DNA of 6,711 nucleotides from Candidatus Helarchaeota ASGARD archaeon Hel_GB_B (GTDB taxonomy: Archaea; Asgardarchaeota; Lokiarchaeia; Helarchaeales; HEL-GB-B). Positions 494 to 6,711 of the stretch are shown piece after piece (the first letter of the stretch is position 1; every line of letters starts with the position of its first letter). The position numbers and the translations under genes were made by a program. The notes beneath the pieces are model-generated. The model worked only from the letters and a program-made list of their open reading frames with translations. It did no database searches and had not been told where the DNA came from. The stretch spans positions 1 to 6,711 of the forward strand of contig SUPR01000146.1 in NCBI GenBank assembly GCA_005191425.1, given 5' to 3'.

Positions 494-616
494 ACTATAA
501 TTTAATAAAATTTTAAAAATAATTCGATACAATTATCTATTATTATTATCTATAATTATCATCATTTTTAGTAACGAAAATAATATCAAGAAAAATGGGA
601 CCATGTGAATAATACC

Positions 617-1849
617 ATGAATAGAACAGACATTTCATATCAAGATTATATGTATGACTTTATGAAGGAAATTTGTAATAAAATCGGACCTCGAATTGGT
701 TGGTCTGAAAATGAGAGGAAATGTGCATATATGATCCGAAATGAACTTAAAAAATATTGTGATGAAGTTGAAATTGAAGAATTTAATTATAATCGGTCTT
801 TTTATTTGATGTTTAAAATTCCTTTAATATTAAATATAGTTGGAATTTTATCCTACTTATTGGTCCTTTTCGGAATTAATGTACTCACATTATATTTTAA
901 TATAACCAGTGTTGCCTGCTTTTCTTTGGCATTATTTTTCCTTTTAGGTCAATTTATTTTTAATAAAGATGTAATGGGTATTTTTGCAAAATCAGGCGAG
1001 TCGCAAAATGTAATTGGAAAGATTAAAGCAAAAAAAAGTGCAAATAGGATTTTAATTTTTTCAGGACACCATGATTCAACTTGGCATTTTACTCTTATGG
1101 ACAAATTAGGAGAAAAATTTTTAATTTTTACATATATAACAATTTTTTTCTTATTTGCTACATTTATAGTTTCAATTATTAATCTGATTTGGTATATACT
1201 TACAAACAACTATAACCTGGTCTTAGATATCATTACAAGGTCCCTTTATATAGGGTCAATTCCATTTATTGCTACTTTCTCCTTATTTATGATCGATAAA
1301 TCCAGAGAAACATTGGGGGCAAACGACAATCTCAGTGGAGTTGTTGTAATGTTAGGTGTGGCAAAATATTTGGCAGAAAAAGGGAGGTGCAACAATATTG
1401 AAGTGTGGTGCGTTTCATTTGGCTCGGAAGAGGGAGGACTTCATGGAAGCAAAGCATTTGTCAAAAAACATTTAAATGAATTGGATAAAGCAATTTTAAT
1501 TAATGCAGATACAATAGGACATGGAAAAATCAGAATTGCTAAAAAAGAGTTATTAATAAGCCATGATAAACGCGTAATTGAGTTGATTGATACCGCTGCA
1601 AATAATTTAGGAATTGAACATAGTATTATGGGGTCTGGTGGCGGCAGAACAGATGCTATGTCATTTACTGAACGGGGATTATTAGCAGCTACTATGATTG
1701 GACTCGAGGACTCGAAAAAAATGCCACCAGATTATCATACAATACGCGATATACCTGAAAATTTAGACCCTACATTATTAAAACAAGTCCTTGAAATAGA
1801 CCTTGAAATAATCCATTTGCTTGATTCCGGAAAATTTAAGATTGATTGA
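617..1849 (+). CDS. M28 family zinc metallopeptidase with transmembrane insertions
   Basis: Long ORF (GTG at 605, first ATG at 617). All five M28 metal/catalytic motifs are present: GHHDS, GANDNLSG, FGSEEGGLHGS, INADTIG and YHT. It also has an N-terminal GPRxxxS motif and two long hydrophobic inserts. The start codon is uncertain (605, 617 or slightly later). Confidence 0.92.
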   Translation: MNRTDISYQDYMYDFMKEICNKIGPRIGWSENERKCAYMIRNELKKYCDEVEIEEFNYNRSFYLMFKIPLILNIVGILSYLLVLFGINVLTLYFNITSVACFSLALFFLLGQFIFNKDVMGIFAKSGESQNVIGKIKAKKSANRILIFSGHHDSTWHFTLMDKLGEKFLIFTYITIFFLFATFIVSIINLIWYILTNNYNLVLDIITRSLYIGSIPFIATFSLFMIDKSRETLGANDNLSGVVVMLGVAKYLAEKGRCNNIEVWCVSFGSEEGGLHGSKAFVKKHLNELDKAILINADTIGHGKIRIAKKELLISHDKRVIELIDTAANNLGIEHSIMGSGGGRTDAMSFTERGLLAATMIGLEDSKKMPPDYHTIRDIPENLDPTLLKQVLEIDLEIIHLLDSGKFKID

Positions 1850-1949: not shown

Positions 1950-2387
1950 ATGACAAATGAAACTTTAGACAAAATAATTGCAGATATTGTAATTAATATA
2001 ATAACCGAACTGCAAAAAATTACACCGTTAGATATTAATGAAATTGACCGATTTATGATATATCAATTTAAAACAAATAAAAGTATCAAAAATTATAAAG
2101 AAGAATTAATTCAGAATATAGAATTATTAAATAAAAGTACTCAAGAAAAAAAACAAATAAAGAAAATTTTTTTGGAATATTTAGATGATTTAGAGTTATT
2201 ACACAATATGAACCATATAATATTAAGTATGAAATTACAAGAAATTTTAACTGATAAAGAAACTATCAATTTAATTGATTTCTCTAAATTTAGGAAAATG
2301 ATTGAATTTAATATTAACCAAAAAAAAGATATTATTAAATATTATTTATCTATTTTAACTAGAAAATATGAGAACTTTTATATTTAA
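1950..2387 (+). CDS. Hypothetical protein, predicted all-alpha-helical
   Basis: 145-codon ATG ORF in DNA where stop codons are very frequent. It is rich in Ile/Lys/Glu/Leu/Asn with amphipathic-helix patterning. No family motif recognised. Confidence 0.72.
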   Translation: MTNETLDKIIADIVINIITELQKITPLDINEIDRFMIYQFKTNKSIKNYKEELIQNIELLNKSTQEKKQIKKIFLEYLDDLELLHNMNHIILSMKLQEILTDKETINLIDFSKFRKMIEFNINQKKDIIKYYLSILTRKYENFYI

Positions 2388-2421: not shown

Positions 2422-2457
2422 AGCGATCTGCAACATCGCTGTCATTGGCCAATTACA
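2422..2457. other. GC-rich hairpin plus adjacent near-perfect palindrome between convergent genes (possible terminator / RNA element)
   Basis: AGCGAT(2422-2427)-CTGCAAC-ATCGCT(2435-2440) forms a 6-bp stem. TGTCATTGGCCAATTACA (2440-2457) is an 18-bp palindrome with one mismatched pair. On the minus strand the stem is followed by a U-rich tract (CUUAUUAUUUU). Confidence 0.35.
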
Positions 2458-2488
2458 AATTTAATTTGGTCAAATCATCCATTCTTAT

Positions 2489-2596
2489 TTATTTTTTGTA
2501 TATTTTTTTATATGTTTGTGTAATTGAATCATCATGTCCAAATCGGTCTATTAATGCTTTTATAAATTCATCATTATTAAGTCGATTTTCGACCAC
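2489..2596 (-). CDS. Possible small protein (35 aa) or in-frame readthrough extension of the upstream GC-terminated gene
   Basis: Minus strand GTG GTC GAA ... AAA TAA gives (M)VENRLNNDEFIKALIDRFGHDDSITQTYKKIYKK*. It is in the same frame as 2603..2935 and starts one codon after its TGA TGA. It looks like an amphipathic helix but is too short to be certain. Confidence 0.25.
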   Translation of the reverse strand: MVENRLNNDEFIKALIDRFGHDDSITQTYKKIYKK

Positions 2597-2602
2597 GTTT
2601 CA

Positions 2603-2935
2603 TCAACAACCGATATCAGGAGTAAAAATTGCTACCGTTTGGTCAGGAAGTATTAATAAAGGATCACTTCTGACATTCAAATATTTTTTATTATTATCAC
2701 GAACATCTATCCCAACATCTTCATAAAATTCTCCAGTTTTAGGATTGTAAATTACTTGTAACATACTTTTTATACCTTTAATTGGAAATTGACCGTTAGT
2801 CATCTTAAATAACTCTAAATCAGCCTTTGCAATGGTATGTATTATATTTCCAGTATCATCAATTAAAATTGTAAATGGTTCTTTGTTAATTTTTAATATC
2901 TCAGAGTTAATTAGTAAAAATTGTATAGTTTTCAT
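2603..2935 (-). CDS. Putative beta-grasp (MoaD/ThiS/SAMP-like, ubiquitin-like) protein with C-terminal Gly-Cys
   Basis: 110-aa ATG ORF. The pattern of strand (TIQFLLIN), strand (EPFTILI), helix (NIIHTIAKADLELFK), strand (VGIDVRD) and final strand LPDQTVAIFTPDIGC matches the MoaD/SAMP layout, which ends LxDGDEVAIFPPVSGG. The fold call is by eye; coding status is more secure than the family call. Confidence 0.7.
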   Translation of the reverse strand: MKTIQFLLINSEILKINKEPFTILIDDTGNIIHTIAKADLELFKMTNGQFPIKGIKSMLQVIYNPKTGEFYEDVGIDVRDNNKKYLNVRSDPLLILPDQTVAIFTPDIGC

Positions 2936-3098
2936 ATCTTAAATTAAATGTCTATAAATTAAATAATTTATGGTTCGAATTTTATTTCAATTTTATAAAA
3001 AATTTAAATATACTAAAAAATAAATATTAAAAATAACATTAATTTTAATTGTAAACCTAATTTTTTTAAAAGTCTTTTATTTAGTGGAAGTTAAAAAA
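2936..3098. promoter_or_regulatory. Divergent promoter region between the Ubl-like gene and the GTPase gene
   Basis: 163-bp extremely AT-rich gap between two head-to-head start codons. A TATA-like TTTTAAAA at 3064-3071 lies about 30 nt upstream of ATG 3099. Individual boxes cannot be assigned reliably in such AT-rich DNA. Confidence 0.35.
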
Positions 3099-3608
3099 AT
3101 GAGTGAAAAATTCGGTTTCAAAGTAATTATAACTGGTGATACCGCAGTTGGTAAGACTTCTTTAGTCCGTAGATATTGTGATAATAAATTTGATGCTAAC
3201 CAAAAACCGTCAATTGGTGCTGATTTTACCATTAAAGTAGTACATTTCGCGAAATATGAGGTTATTTTAACAATTTGGGATATTGGAGGTCAAGTATTAT
3301 TTGACAATTTACGTGACTTTTATTATCAAGGATCTGATGCCGGGATCATTGTTTTTGATGTCACAAATCAAGATTCTCTTAAACGCATAAGTGCGAAATG
3401 GCTACCTGAAATGCAATCTATAAACAATATTTCGATTATTATTTTAGCAAATAAAATAGACCTAAAACAAGATAGAATTATTGGGCCTGAAGAATGTCAA
3501 CAATTATCAAATGATTTGGGAATACCCGTTTTTGAAACATCAGCTAAGACTGGAATTAATGTGAAAAAGGCATTTGAAGTCTTAGCAAAATCACTAGTTG
3601 AAAGATAA
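3099..3608 (+). CDS. Rab-like small GTPase (Ras superfamily)
   Basis: G1 GDTAVGKTS, G2 PSIGADF, G3 WDIGGQ, G4 NKID and G5 ETSAK are all present, with RabF-like motifs IGADF, ILTIW, YYQGS and IVFDVT. ATG 3099 is preferred over GTG 3084. There is no C-terminal Cys/CAAX tail. Confidence 0.96.
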   Translation: MSEKFGFKVIITGDTAVGKTSLVRRYCDNKFDANQKPSIGADFTIKVVHFAKYEVILTIWDIGGQVLFDNLRDFYYQGSDAGIIVFDVTNQDSLKRISAKWLPEMQSINNISIIILANKIDLKQDRIIGPEECQQLSNDLGIPVFETSAKTGINVKKAFEVLAKSLVER

Positions 3609-4230: not shown

Positions 4231-5265
4231 ATGATTAAAATGAAGAAAGAGCGTCCAATAGTAGCAATAATTAAAGGAACGCAGTATAAAGCTACAATAA
4301 AAGCACTATCATTAATCAAGGATTATATTGATGTAGAAAATAATGCAAAGATTATTTTAAAGCCGAATCTATTATCTAGCAATAAATCGCATATTATAAA
4401 TACAGATCCAAGAGTATGTTTAGCGGTACATGACTTTTTTAATAGAGAATTGAAAATCGATAAAAAAAATATTGTTTTATCTGCAGGGACAACTCACGGA
4501 AAACCACCAGATGCTAAATTTGCATTAGAAAATAATGACTATTTTAAATTTAAAAGTGATTGGAATTACCATGATTTTGCAGAAGACAAACCAGGTAAGT
4601 GGTTTAAGATTTATGAATTTAATAGTAATAGAAATCTGGAGTTAGCTTTAGCAAAATCACTTATTGAAGCGGATTACATAATAAGTGTCCCAAAATTTAA
4701 GACACATGATGTGTTAGGTTTGACATTATCGCTTAAGAATTTAATGGGTACACTCGTTGCTGCAAAAGACCAAACAGGGACTATCATTAAAACTAAACCC
4801 GCAAATGTATGCCCATTAATGCATGGATTTGGGAATAGAAGGCCACATCAATTAAGTGATGCAGAAAATTCTGGGCCATCAAAATTGTGCTTGGCGACTA
4901 ATCTTATACGAATGGCACAAAAGATCCAGCCTTCACTAGCCGTTATTGATGGGGTTGTTGCAATGGAGGGGAATGGGCCAGTTTTTGGCGTTAAAAAAAA
5001 TTTAGGAATAGTGATTGCAAGTAATGATTTCATTGCTGCCGATACAGTAGCAACTCATATTGCTGGAATGGAACCTAAAGATATCCAGTACATATTACAA
5101 GCAGGAAAAATTGGACTTGGTGAATATAATCCTGATAAAATAGAAATTGTGGGCGAAAATATTGATCTTATTAAAAATAAATTTATCCCGCATCGATTAT
5201 TCCATAAATCTAAATTTACTCAAGAAGAAATTGCTATTTTAGAAAAAAAGATAAGATATAACTAA
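4231..5265 (+). CDS. DUF362 domain-containing protein
   Basis: Family motifs IILKPNL, ADYIISVPKFKTH, LTLSLKNLMG, AVIDGVVAMEGNGP and ASNDFIAADTVA...GM are present in the expected order. No C-terminal CxxCxxC ferredoxin module. Alternative start ATG at 4240. Confidence 0.9.
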   Translation: MIKMKKERPIVAIIKGTQYKATIKALSLIKDYIDVENNAKIILKPNLLSSNKSHIINTDPRVCLAVHDFFNRELKIDKKNIVLSAGTTHGKPPDAKFALENNDYFKFKSDWNYHDFAEDKPGKWFKIYEFNSNRNLELALAKSLIEADYIISVPKFKTHDVLGLTLSLKNLMGTLVAAKDQTGTIIKTKPANVCPLMHGFGNRRPHQLSDAENSGPSKLCLATNLIRMAQKIQPSLAVIDGVVAMEGNGPVFGVKKNLGIVIASNDFIAADTVATHIAGMEPKDIQYILQAGKIGLGEYNPDKIEIVGENIDLIKNKFIPHRLFHKSKFTQEEIAILEKKIRYN

Positions 5266-5481: not shown

Positions 5482-6711
5482 ATGTTAAGCATTGATGTTA
5501 TTAAAGAGTTAGGAAACATCGTTGGAGCACCATTTGTTAGCACTGCACCTGAAGATTTGTATATTTATAGCAGAGATATGACTGAAAGTGAGCCAGGTAA
5601 TCCAGACGCTATTGTTATGCCCAGTTCGGTTGAAGAAGTCCAAAAAATTATGCAGCTAGCAAATGAATTAAAAATACCAGTGGTACCATATGTTTCTGGT
5701 GCGAATATTGGGGGTCTAACTATTGCCACAAAAGGGGGTATTATATTAGATTTAAAACGAATGAAAAAAGTCGTTAAATTTGACCCCGAAAATAAATATA
5801 TTATTGTAGAACCAGGGTTTACATTTGGACATATGAAGAAATTTTTATCAGATAAGGATTTTATTTATAGTTATGCATTTTCGCCGCCCTATACATCAGT
5901 TGTTGCAAATGCACTTTTACAAGGGCTTACAGAATATAGTTTAAAATATGGTTGTATGGCAAATTGGATTACTGGACTTGAAATAGTCCTTCCAACGGGA
6001 GAAATTGTTCAAATAGGGTCGCACATAATTAGCGACAAAATGTGGGGAAAAAATCCACTTCCAGATATGGTCGGATTAATTACAGGTTGGCAGGGGACAA
6101 CTGGTGTTGTAACAAAGATGGGGTTAAAATTGTTGCCAAAACCACCTATAAAAAAACTATATGGAGCTGTTTGGAATAGTATTGAATCAGCTGAAGAAGG
6201 GTTAAAGTTTTTTACAGATTCAGGGATAGTTTTAGGAGAATTTTCTTTTTCATGGGAATGTATTTTAATGTTAAGCGGAGCTAAATATCCATTAAGGAAG
6301 ATCCGTGAAGATGAACCAAAAATGCTATCAGGATTTATACTCCATGCTGAAAATAAAAAACATTTAAAAATTCAAGAAGAAATTTTGAGAGAGAAATTTC
6401 ATGAACTTAATGAAAAATATAAAAGAAAAATAGACAATCAGATGTTGCCTGTAGAAATAGCAGTTACCAAAAAAATACAAAAAATGTTAGACTTACCAAG
6501 CGCATTACCACCATTTATGGAATTTAGGACAGGAATTGATGGTAAAAAAGGTACAGGAATGAGCTGGCTTGGTACATATTGTCCTAGATCAAATTGGACT
6601 AAATCTTATAATAAGGGCTATGAAATAATGAAAAAACATGGTTTTACTCCCTTGATATTTGTTAAAGTTATGGATAACGGTCGATATCATGTCGTTAGAT
6701 TCCTTGTACCA
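5482..6711 (+). CDS. FAD-binding oxidoreductase, VAO/PCMH (FAD_binding_4, GlcD/D-lactate dehydrogenase-like) family; partial, runs off the window
   Basis: Not in the ORF track because it has no stop inside the window. Frame +1 is open for 410 codons: MLSIDVIKELGNIVG...PDAIVMPSSVEEVQKIMQLANELKIPVVPYVSGANIGGL...GGIILDLKRMKK...IIVEPGFTFG...GLEIVLPTGEIV...PLPDMVGLITGWQGTTGVVTKMGLKL, which is the typical PCMH-type FAD-binding domain. Confidence 0.93.
   Translation, partial: MLSIDVIKELGNIVGAPFVSTAPEDLYIYSRDMTESEPGNPDAIVMPSSVEEVQKIMQLANELKIPVVPYVSGANIGGLTIATKGGIILDLKRMKKVVKFDPENKYIIVEPGFTFGHMKKFLSDKDFIYSYAFSPPYTSVVANALLQGLTEYSLKYGCMANWITGLEIVLPTGEIVQIGSHIISDKMWGKNPLPDMVGLITGWQGTTGVVTKMGLKLLPKPPIKKLYGAVWNSIESAEEGLKFFTDSGIVLGEFSFSWECILMLSGAKYPLRKIREDEPKMLSGFILHAENKKHLKIQEEILREKFHELNEKYKRKIDNQMLPVEIAVTKKIQKMLDLPSALPPFMEFRTGIDGKKGTGMSWLGTYCPRSNWTKSYNKGYEIMKKHGFTPLIFVKVMDNGRYHVVRFLVP

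Follow-up and report, generated by a model that had tools for sequence, protein, structure and literature searches.

The gene and its annotated end

The window analysed here, 6,711 bp in length, is one whole contig (SUPR01000146.1) of the 3.5-Mb metagenome-assembled genome (MAG; completeness 94%) of the Asgard archaeon Candidatus Helarchaeota archaeon Hel_GB_B. On its minus strand, translation table 11 gives an open reading frame (ORF) at 2603..2935 of 110 residues, ending in ...TPDIGC, with the terminal Cys as the sole Cys in that 110-residue ORF. This much had been read correctly in a preliminary description of the window, which took the product for a ubiquitin-like or sulfur-carrier-like protein ending in Gly-Cys instead of Gly-Gly. 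Beyond Cys110 the frame continues through two adjacent TGA codons and then 36 in-frame codons, up to a TAA at 2489-2491 (Table 1). On the comparative evidence set out below, this 'Gly-Cys terminus' is an artefact of UGA being read as stop. The product is most likely a 148-residue selenoprotein, made up of a beta-grasp domain, the motif Asp107-x-Gly-Cys110-Sec111-Sec112 (Sec, selenocysteine) and a tail of about 36 residues, and we consider this architecture very probable. The TGA-TGA pair, the in-frame tail and a selenocysteine insertion sequence (SECIS) are conserved in copies of the gene from the class Lokiarchaeia. The closest database relatives of the 110-residue ORF come from Helarchaeota MAGs (59-64% identity), and their annotated ends read ...PDAGC.

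Conservation of the UGA pair and of the tail

We examined 46 Lokiarchaeia-class copies of the gene from seven GTDB families, with genomes of about 27% G+C. The annotated end is followed by TGA-TGA in all of them (46/46), never by TAA or TAG, and this holds for two types of gene: one in which the pair comes right after Cys, and a paralogue annotated as ending in ...VHAD, in which it comes after Asp (the HAD paralogue). A second locus set, 31 rows over families f1-f7 with largely the same matches, gave the same pattern. The extension frame is also open in 46/46 copies, with a median open length of 34-38 codons as against 0-9 codons in the other two frames. Within the tail, pairwise differences are highest at third codon positions (0.44 versus 0.30 and 0.17 in the Cys group of family f6), and synonymous and non-synonymous codon differences number 1104 and 1764 in frame, compared with 344 and 2621, and 249 and 2722, in the other frames. 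Conserved tail residues follow the pattern R-L-x4-F-x3-[LI]...[FY]-G...Y, and the tail is homologous to the long tails, encoded by sense codons, of the Cys-only homologues P0014, P0016 and P0027 (EEFxKAL motif).

SECIS elements and the selenocysteine machinery

The SECIS of Lokiarchaeota (lokiSECIS) consists, in the account of Mariotti et al. (PMC4989117), of AUGA, a 9-bp stem, an 11-nt loop and then GA, close behind the stop codon; the first five bases of the loop favour A and the last base G. An element of this type is found 0-25 nt past the true stop in 42/46 copies of the gene, with a loop of 11-13 nt that starts with A's, as in AUGA-AAUCUUUCA-AAAAAUGCUAG-UGAAAGAUU-GAC. It sits behind the end of the extended frame, not behind TGA-TGA. 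The stem sequences vary among clades. An alignment of 39 sequences shows compensatory, two-sided changes at each of the 9 stem pairs, with 92% of cells paired; 0/500 shuffles attain the observed values, and pairing with a slid partner comes to 45-52%.

After the GAC there is a second hairpin with a GC-containing loop, which covaries as well (helix 2; 6/6 pairs changed on both sides) and which also follows the HdrA and VhuD SECIS elements of the window's genome (loci L124-L130). It is not mentioned in the lokiSECIS section consulted (PMC4989117), and may be an accessory helix of the SECIS or a terminator. Tandem Cys-Sec-Sec and HAD-Sec-Sec paralogues were seen in f6 at L084 (6519-7350), L088 (7986-8820) and L089. 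Two of the four copies that have no SECIS of their own are the upstream members of such pairs (L084, L088). By analogy with HdrA-VhuD pairs, for which a shared SECIS is reported (PMC4989117), these upstream copies may share the downstream element, a single SECIS then possibly acting on four UGA codons, two per gene.

The candidate element of the window's gene begins 10 nt past the TAA. It comprises AUGA (2478-2475), a 5' arm of 9 nt (2474-2466, UUUGACCAA), a loop of 13 nt (2465-2453), a 3' arm of 9 nt (2452-2444, UUGGCCAAU) and GAC (2443-2441), and the second hairpin (2440-2422) follows it. Its support comes from context, namely its homologous place and a genome-wide motif scan. This composite-motif pattern scan of the window's genome gave 19 matches, versus 7 in shuffled sequence. 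Strong composite matches lie 0-30 nt behind three HdrA genes, three VhuD genes and the gene described here, with one more at a contig end. At about 11 weak matches in 7.1 Mb (both strands), a chance match in the 60 nt behind the gene has a probability of about 1e-4. Aligned side by side, the element has the AUGA, the A/U-rich loop, the GAC and the following hairpin in common with the VhuD and HdrA elements. A stem of the form GUCGA-AAA-UCGAC, located right after the UGAs, was also considered as a bacterial-type SECIS; the closest relatives (L001, L002) do not conserve it, and it is therefore not treated as one.

The genome of the window encodes other parts of a Sec system. Its three HdrA and three VhuD genes contain an in-frame TGA at the classical Sec sites, with a SECIS behind, and it encodes SepSecS (E 1e-113) and SelD, the latter with an in-frame TGA.

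Fold and relation to sulfur-carrier proteins

The 110-residue form was modelled with AlphaFold2, using as alignment input 32 relatives from an exhaustive phmmer search, which gave a predicted local distance difference test score (pLDDT) of 95.6 and a predicted template modelling (TM) score of 0.87. Prediction from the single sequence, with no alignment, gave a pLDDT of 43 and was unusable. The predicted layout is beta-beta-alpha-beta-beta with a short helix/hairpin insertion. The top Foldseek matches in the PDB are SAMP1, Urm1, HVO_2177 and MoaD, and the ESM Atlas concurs (TM about 0.6 to ThiS/MoaD clusters). According to these models the 110-codon part is a beta-grasp of the MoaD/ThiS/SAMP type. 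The fold put forward in the preliminary description is thus borne out by the AlphaFold and Foldseek check, as is the collinearity of the annotated tail with the MoaD/SAMP terminus.

At the sequence level the likeness fades. No Pfam family matched at E up to 1, including PF02597 (ThiS) and PF09138 (Urm1), and neither NCBIfam nor PDB sequence searches returned a match. Comparison by hhalign with six ThiS proteins of the window's genome was collinear and insignificant (probability 4.9%). The window protein has its predicted beta-grasp fold in common with MoaD, ThiS, CysO, SAMP and Urm1, and differs from them in giving no PF02597 or PF09138 match and a weak match between profiles. The sulfur carriers end in Gly-Gly, whereas the window chain would run on through Cys-Sec-Sec and 36 residues, with no Gly-Gly carboxylate; the Cys-Sec-Sec triad would occupy the site where MoaD, ThiS and SAMP bear Gly-Gly.

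Distribution and variants of the family

Profile searching recovered about 130 clusters, all of them unnamed and none with a Pfam domain, in three groups. Those with the annotated end P-D-x-G-C belong to the class Lokiarchaeia, Helarchaeales included. Proteins of the Bathyarchaeia group are about 118 aa long and carry the pattern P-[EQ]-G-G-C-x-T-D-W-E-E-P-x-x, with an internal Cys and a conserved tail. The HAD paralogue, which has no Cys, is an extra member in the large Lokiarchaeia family f6. Among 400 sampled Asgard genomes the family was found in 137, and all except one weak match fall in the window's class, Lokiarchaeia. Three groups are also seen in the tree: Bathyarchaeia (Cys only); f6, with Cys-Sec-Sec and the HAD-Sec-Sec paralogue, in ars context; and a clade with Cys-Sec-Sec and without ars context, which unites the window's gene with those of other Helarchaeales and of families f5 and f7.

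The Gly before the Cys is replaced in some genera by Met, Gln or Glu (PDPMC, PDAQC, PDAEC). To judge by these sequences, Gly is dispensable in Lokiarchaeia-class members and Cys is not. In Bathyarchaeia the two Sec positions hold Gln/Thr/Ile and Thr/Ser, and the preceding Cys alone is shared. The earlier proposal that a conserved thiol lies at the heart of an archaeal family not previously described therefore holds as regards the family and its Cys, and fails as regards a terminal thiol, since the Cys is followed by UGA-UGA and a tail; similarly, when conservation of the terminal Gly-Cys was checked by the profile search, Cys proved conserved and Gly did not, and in Bathyarchaeia the Cys is internal.

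Two Bathyarchaeia loci have stop codons of another kind. In L037 (6174-6326) an in-frame TAA comes directly after the Cys, and in L029 (1097-1435) a TAG replaces the tail Trp; in both the conserved tail goes on in frame. Errors of assembly, pseudogenes or read-through could each account for this.

Gene neighbourhood and arsenic context

Neighbouring genes were clustered from 68 loci. The top cluster is the arsenite pump ACR3 (TIGR00832; 333 bits in Bathyarchaeia, 271 bits in Lokiarchaeia), encoded directly upstream on the same strand, and the second is an ArsR/SmtB regulator. Other recurring neighbours are a thioredoxin-type ArsC, a small CxC protein with a thioredoxin fold, DGC-domain proteins, ferredoxins, a YdjM-like membrane protein, an HD hydrolase and a fusion of a CpaM-like methyltransferase with an HgcA-like corrinoid domain. 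ACR3 lies at most 4 kb away in 20/29 f6 loci and, among Bathyarchaeia, at 5 distinct loci; other ars genes occur at 4 more Bathyarchaeia loci (5 with L003, where an ArsC-like LMWPc gene adjoins the gene). In f6, as at about half of the Bathyarchaeia loci, arsR and ACR3 are encoded next to the gene, often with an ArsC-type reductase. There are at least three distinct ars gene orders in two phyla, and a functional link is therefore favoured over inherited synteny. In the window's own clade (Helarchaeales and allies) the gene stands alone, and no neighbour is conserved beyond close relatives.

The CpaM/HgcA fusion is a protein of about 560 aa, encoded at 5578-7281 (+) in L104, with homologues in L082, L103, L105 and L106. 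It is found in Lokiarchaeia ars operons and scores about 175 bits with NF043039/NF040863, below the cut-off. Its C-terminal part clusters with a 96-aa CxC protein that is encoded between ACR3 and the selenoprotein gene, and it may be a corrinoid-dependent metalloid methylase. In the window's genome, contig C125 (about 22700-24400) encodes a second SBF/ACR3-like transporter followed by a CxC small protein, 57% identical to that of f6, and a DGC-domain protein; this locus is a partial f6 operon without the selenoprotein gene.

Other features of the window

The gene divergent from the selenoprotein gene encodes a small GTPase of the Ras/Arf/Roc type (PF00071, E 6e-44). It was considered as a partner and set aside, as it adjoins the gene solely in the closest relatives (the window and L001) and not clade-wide; the adjacency is probably incidental. 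The idea of a Roadblock/longin identity, which the GTPase had prompted, is excluded by the predicted fold. The window's synteny is kept in the Helarchaeota contigs L001 and L002, and in L002 the FAD_binding_4 oxidase is followed by a CCG/Fer4 protein, forming a glycolate-oxidase-like cluster. The features of the window are collected in Table 1.

Table 1. Position and strand of the proposed selenoprotein gene, its parts and the other genes of the window.
Feature	Position	Strand	Remarks
M28 peptidase	605-1849	(+)	hydrophobic N-terminal segments
145-aa protein	1950-2387	(+)	no significant Pfam match; conserved in L001
Second hairpin (AGCGAT / GTTGCAG / ATCGCT), then T-rich run	2422..2440	(-)	directly after SECIS; forms in minimum free energy fold
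Candidate Lokiarchaeota-type SECIS	2441..2478	(-)	same place and motifs as relatives' SECIS, in which the stem is perfect and covaries
Proposed full coding sequence	2489..2935	(-)	148 codons, Met1-Lys148, plus TAA 2489-2491; both in-frame TGA read as Sec; frame 2935 to 2492
C-terminal extension, codons 113-148, NVVENRLNNDEFIKAL...KIYKK	2492..2599	(-)	homologous to relatives' tails
TGA TGA, codons 111-112, proposed Sec-Sec	2600..2605	(-)	table 11 stop is the first TGA, 2603-2605
Cys110 codon TGT	2606..2608	(-)	Cys kept in at least 90% of family; taken for the C-terminus in the preliminary description
Beta-grasp (MoaD/ThiS/SAMP/Urm1-like) domain, codons 1-107	2615..2935	(-)	
Ras/Arf/Roc-type small GTPase	3084-3608	(+)	PF00071; divergent from selenoprotein gene
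DUF362 protein	4231-5265	(+)	
FAD_binding_4 oxidase	5482-6711	(+)	

Proposed function and alternative readings

The best explanation of the locus as a whole is a Cys-Sec-Sec beta-grasp selenoprotein with a soft-metalloid or redox triad, which we regard as likely. In this scheme the two UGAs would be recoded as Sec by the lokiSECIS in the 3' untranslated region, 10 nt past the true TAA. The working part would be the Cys-Sec-Sec triad, which an invariant Asp precedes and whose three soft chalcogens would act as ligands carried by a flexible linker; it may bind As(III), as the most likely thiophilic metalloid, or may cycle between selenol and diselenide or selenenylsulfide. We favour a role in binding or buffering a soft metalloid, because adjacent chalcogens together with Asp (His-x-Asp and two Sec in the paralogue) would suit trigonal As(III) coordination, which is known from ArsR, ArsD and ArsA. 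The idea of arsenic is drawn from the arsR/ACR3 context of the relatives. For the family, a metalloid or soft-metal role seems about as probable as its opposite, and for the window's copy it is a tentative assignment. Similarly tentative is the fuller model of a 'selenium claw', in which Cys-Sec-Sec on a ubiquitin-fold scaffold would capture As(III) or another soft metalloid and pass it to the ACR3 pump.

Such a part would resemble that of ArsD, a small cytosolic As(III) metallochaperone of ars operons with three close chalcogen ligands that include a vicinal pair. By this analogy we infer an ArsD-like role for the family. ArsD is unlike it in having a thioredoxin-like fold and Cys only, and in serving the ArsA ATPase, whereas the neighbour in the present family is ACR3, with no ArsA; we know of no chaperone for ACR3.

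The main rival to metalloid binding is a mobile redox centre. Gly-Cys-Sec-Sec would then work like the Gly-Cys-Sec-Gly arm of thioredoxin reductase (TrxR), passing electrons by conversion of a selenenylsulfide or diselenide to selenol, with ArsC-type reductases, peroxiredoxins or disulfide reductases as partners, and binding no metalloid. The animal enzyme bears Gly-Cys-Sec on a flexible segment, as does the window protein, and the adjacent chalcogens of the TrxR arm are able to form an eight-membered ring. The match of G-C-U to this redox tail, the thioredoxin-type ArsC, thioredoxin-fold CxC proteins and ferredoxins in relatives' operons, and the stand-alone gene in the window's clade, which suits a general redox role, all speak for it. 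The window protein differs from TrxR in its second Sec instead of Gly, in a motif that is not C-terminal, in being a beta-grasp and not a flavoprotein, and in being archaeal. Moreover, the HAD-Sec-Sec paralogue has no Cys, and its His and Asp before the Sec pair more closely resemble a set of ligands than a redox pair; the ACR3 pump, and not a reductase, is the neighbour that lies closest and recurs most often; and no flavoprotein partner recurs. We hold a redox arm to be less likely than not.

Much less probable is the original idea of a true Gly-Cys-ended ubiquitin-like protein or sulfur carrier, acting through its terminal thiol (persulfide, lipid or thioester) or activated by E1 after removal of the Cys. 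The beta-grasp fold and the tail collinear with MoaD/SAMP agree with it, and the window's genome does have six ThiF-type E1 genes, on contigs other than the window's. In addition, a 110-aa form ending in Gly-Cys could arise as a termination product whenever Sec insertion fails. The genome also encodes six canonical ThiS/MoaD proteins, with a terminal Gly-Gly in five of them and the end GGGFI in the sixth; these bear Gly-Gly at or near the end, and the E1s therefore already have partners. The conserved in-frame tail and SECIS speak against this idea, as does the Cys of Bathyarchaeia, which is internal. Removal of the Cys by a JAB-type protease with subsequent activation of the Gly carboxylate is unlikely because some genera have Met, Gln or Glu in place of that Gly, and no E1, JAB, MoaE or ThiG gene is among the recurrent neighbour clusters of the 68 loci, which sets the family apart from sulfur-carrier genes. 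Lipid anchoring of the kind known from MUB proteins finds no support either: the protein lacks a CAAX box, and reading through the UGAs leaves its Cys internal.

It is similarly improbable that TGA-TGA is a genuine double stop, with the downstream conservation due to an independent small ORF, to an RNA element or to a remnant. In its favour are the existence of tandem stops, the imperfect SECIS of the window and the failure to detect a tRNA-Sec. Yet no start codon intervenes between the parts, and every copy preserves the frame, which is the only one with third-position variation and a synonymous excess. The homology of the tail to sense-coded tails, the lack of TAA or TAG despite AT-rich genomes, and a SECIS that follows the extended frame and not TGA-TGA are also at odds with a double stop. 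Finally, decoding of the UGAs as Trp, Cys or Arg by a near-cognate or suppressor tRNA is hardly credible, as TGA is an ordinary stop elsewhere in these loci (it also closes several extended frames) and the SECIS belongs to the type found behind known selenoprotein genes of the window's genome; the database entry P0033 does render the pair as Trp-Trp, and such entries are probably gene calls made under an alternative genetic code.

Several observations weigh against a Cys-Sec-Sec selenoprotein with an arsenic-linked role. The selenoprotein is a prediction from gene sequences, and to our knowledge there is no archaeal precedent for two adjacent Sec codons, whose decoding may be inefficient. Bathyarchaeia homologues, which lack Sec, do not have Cys at the Sec positions, and this is atypical of selenoprotein families. 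The window's SECIS is the weakest of the set, with 7/9 pairs and a 13-nt loop; its stem has one A.C mismatch and a closing U.U beside the GA motif. A covariance model, trained mainly on f6 elements with 11-nt loops, gives it 9 bits (E about 1 within the window), and found no match in the window's genome among the 150 of about 10,600 first-look candidates that were scored. The minimum free energy fold of the single sequence over the SECIS region is no better than shuffles (z -0.3). A tRNA-Sec was not found in the MAG, where Rfam RF01852 reaches 33 bits (threshold 47) and ARAGORN reports none among 8 tRNAs in all. As regards function, ars neighbours are absent from the window, from its closest relatives and from the non-f6 Lokiarchaeia clade as a whole, and the two ACR3/SBF genes of the window's genome sit on other contigs. 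Among the 8 tRNAs that ARAGORN lists for this 94%-complete MAG, one of 89 nt (C139, 704-792) is of uncertain identity.

Comparison with known selenoproteins

A survey of the Asgard selenoproteome, covering more than 400 genomes and built by homology to known selenoprotein families, reported seven families: SelD, FrhA, HdrA, FrhD, Prx-like, AhpF-N and DsbA-like (PMC11227280). The beta-grasp Cys-Sec-Sec family is not among these seven (PMC11227280), and neither a beta-grasp nor a Cys-Sec-Sec family appears in those tables of a 2026 review that were searched (PMC13188914). Asgard and archaeal selenoproteins (SelD, FrhA/VhuU, HdrA, FrhD/VhuD, Prx-like, AhpF-N and DsbA-like) have the same arrangement of an in-frame UGA and a lokiSECIS behind the stop as the window family. 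Unlike them, the window family has two adjacent Sec, and its Sec positions are not Cys in Sec-less homologues.

Bacterial selenoproteins linked to metals or metalloids (SaoB/SaoC, MbdU, UXX-star and ArsM- or ArsC-type proteins) are described in the 2026 review as having CU motifs near the C-terminus and Hg/As operons, and Sec has been proposed there as a metal ligand (PMC13188914). The window family is like them in having Sec next to Cys and relatives in As operons; it differs in giving no NCBIfam match and in its fold, its archaeal SECIS type and its Cys-Sec-Sec triad.

Implications

Archaeal selenoproteomes are deemed small, and have been mapped by homology to known families. If upheld, the gene would represent a new selenoprotein family with an unusual mode of decoding, in which two consecutive UGAs are served by one SECIS in the 3' untranslated region, and this would bear on how the Asgard, eukaryote-like Sec system handles closely spaced UGAs. 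All database entries of the "...PDxGC" type would then be truncated annotations.

Were the 'selenium claw' to prove true, it would provide the first natural adjacent Sec pair in an archaeal protein. The protein would be the first selenoprotein in archaea devoted to detoxifying metalloids, as well as the first proposed ACR3 chaperone; conserved across Lokiarchaeia, it would have been missed by every selenoproteome survey for want of a known selenoprotein relative. The beta-grasp scaffold would offer a way of arming the tail of a ubiquitin-like protein without E1 chemistry. The repeated arsR-ACR3 linkage in two phyla provides a testable tie between selenium and arsenic in archaea of anoxic sediments.

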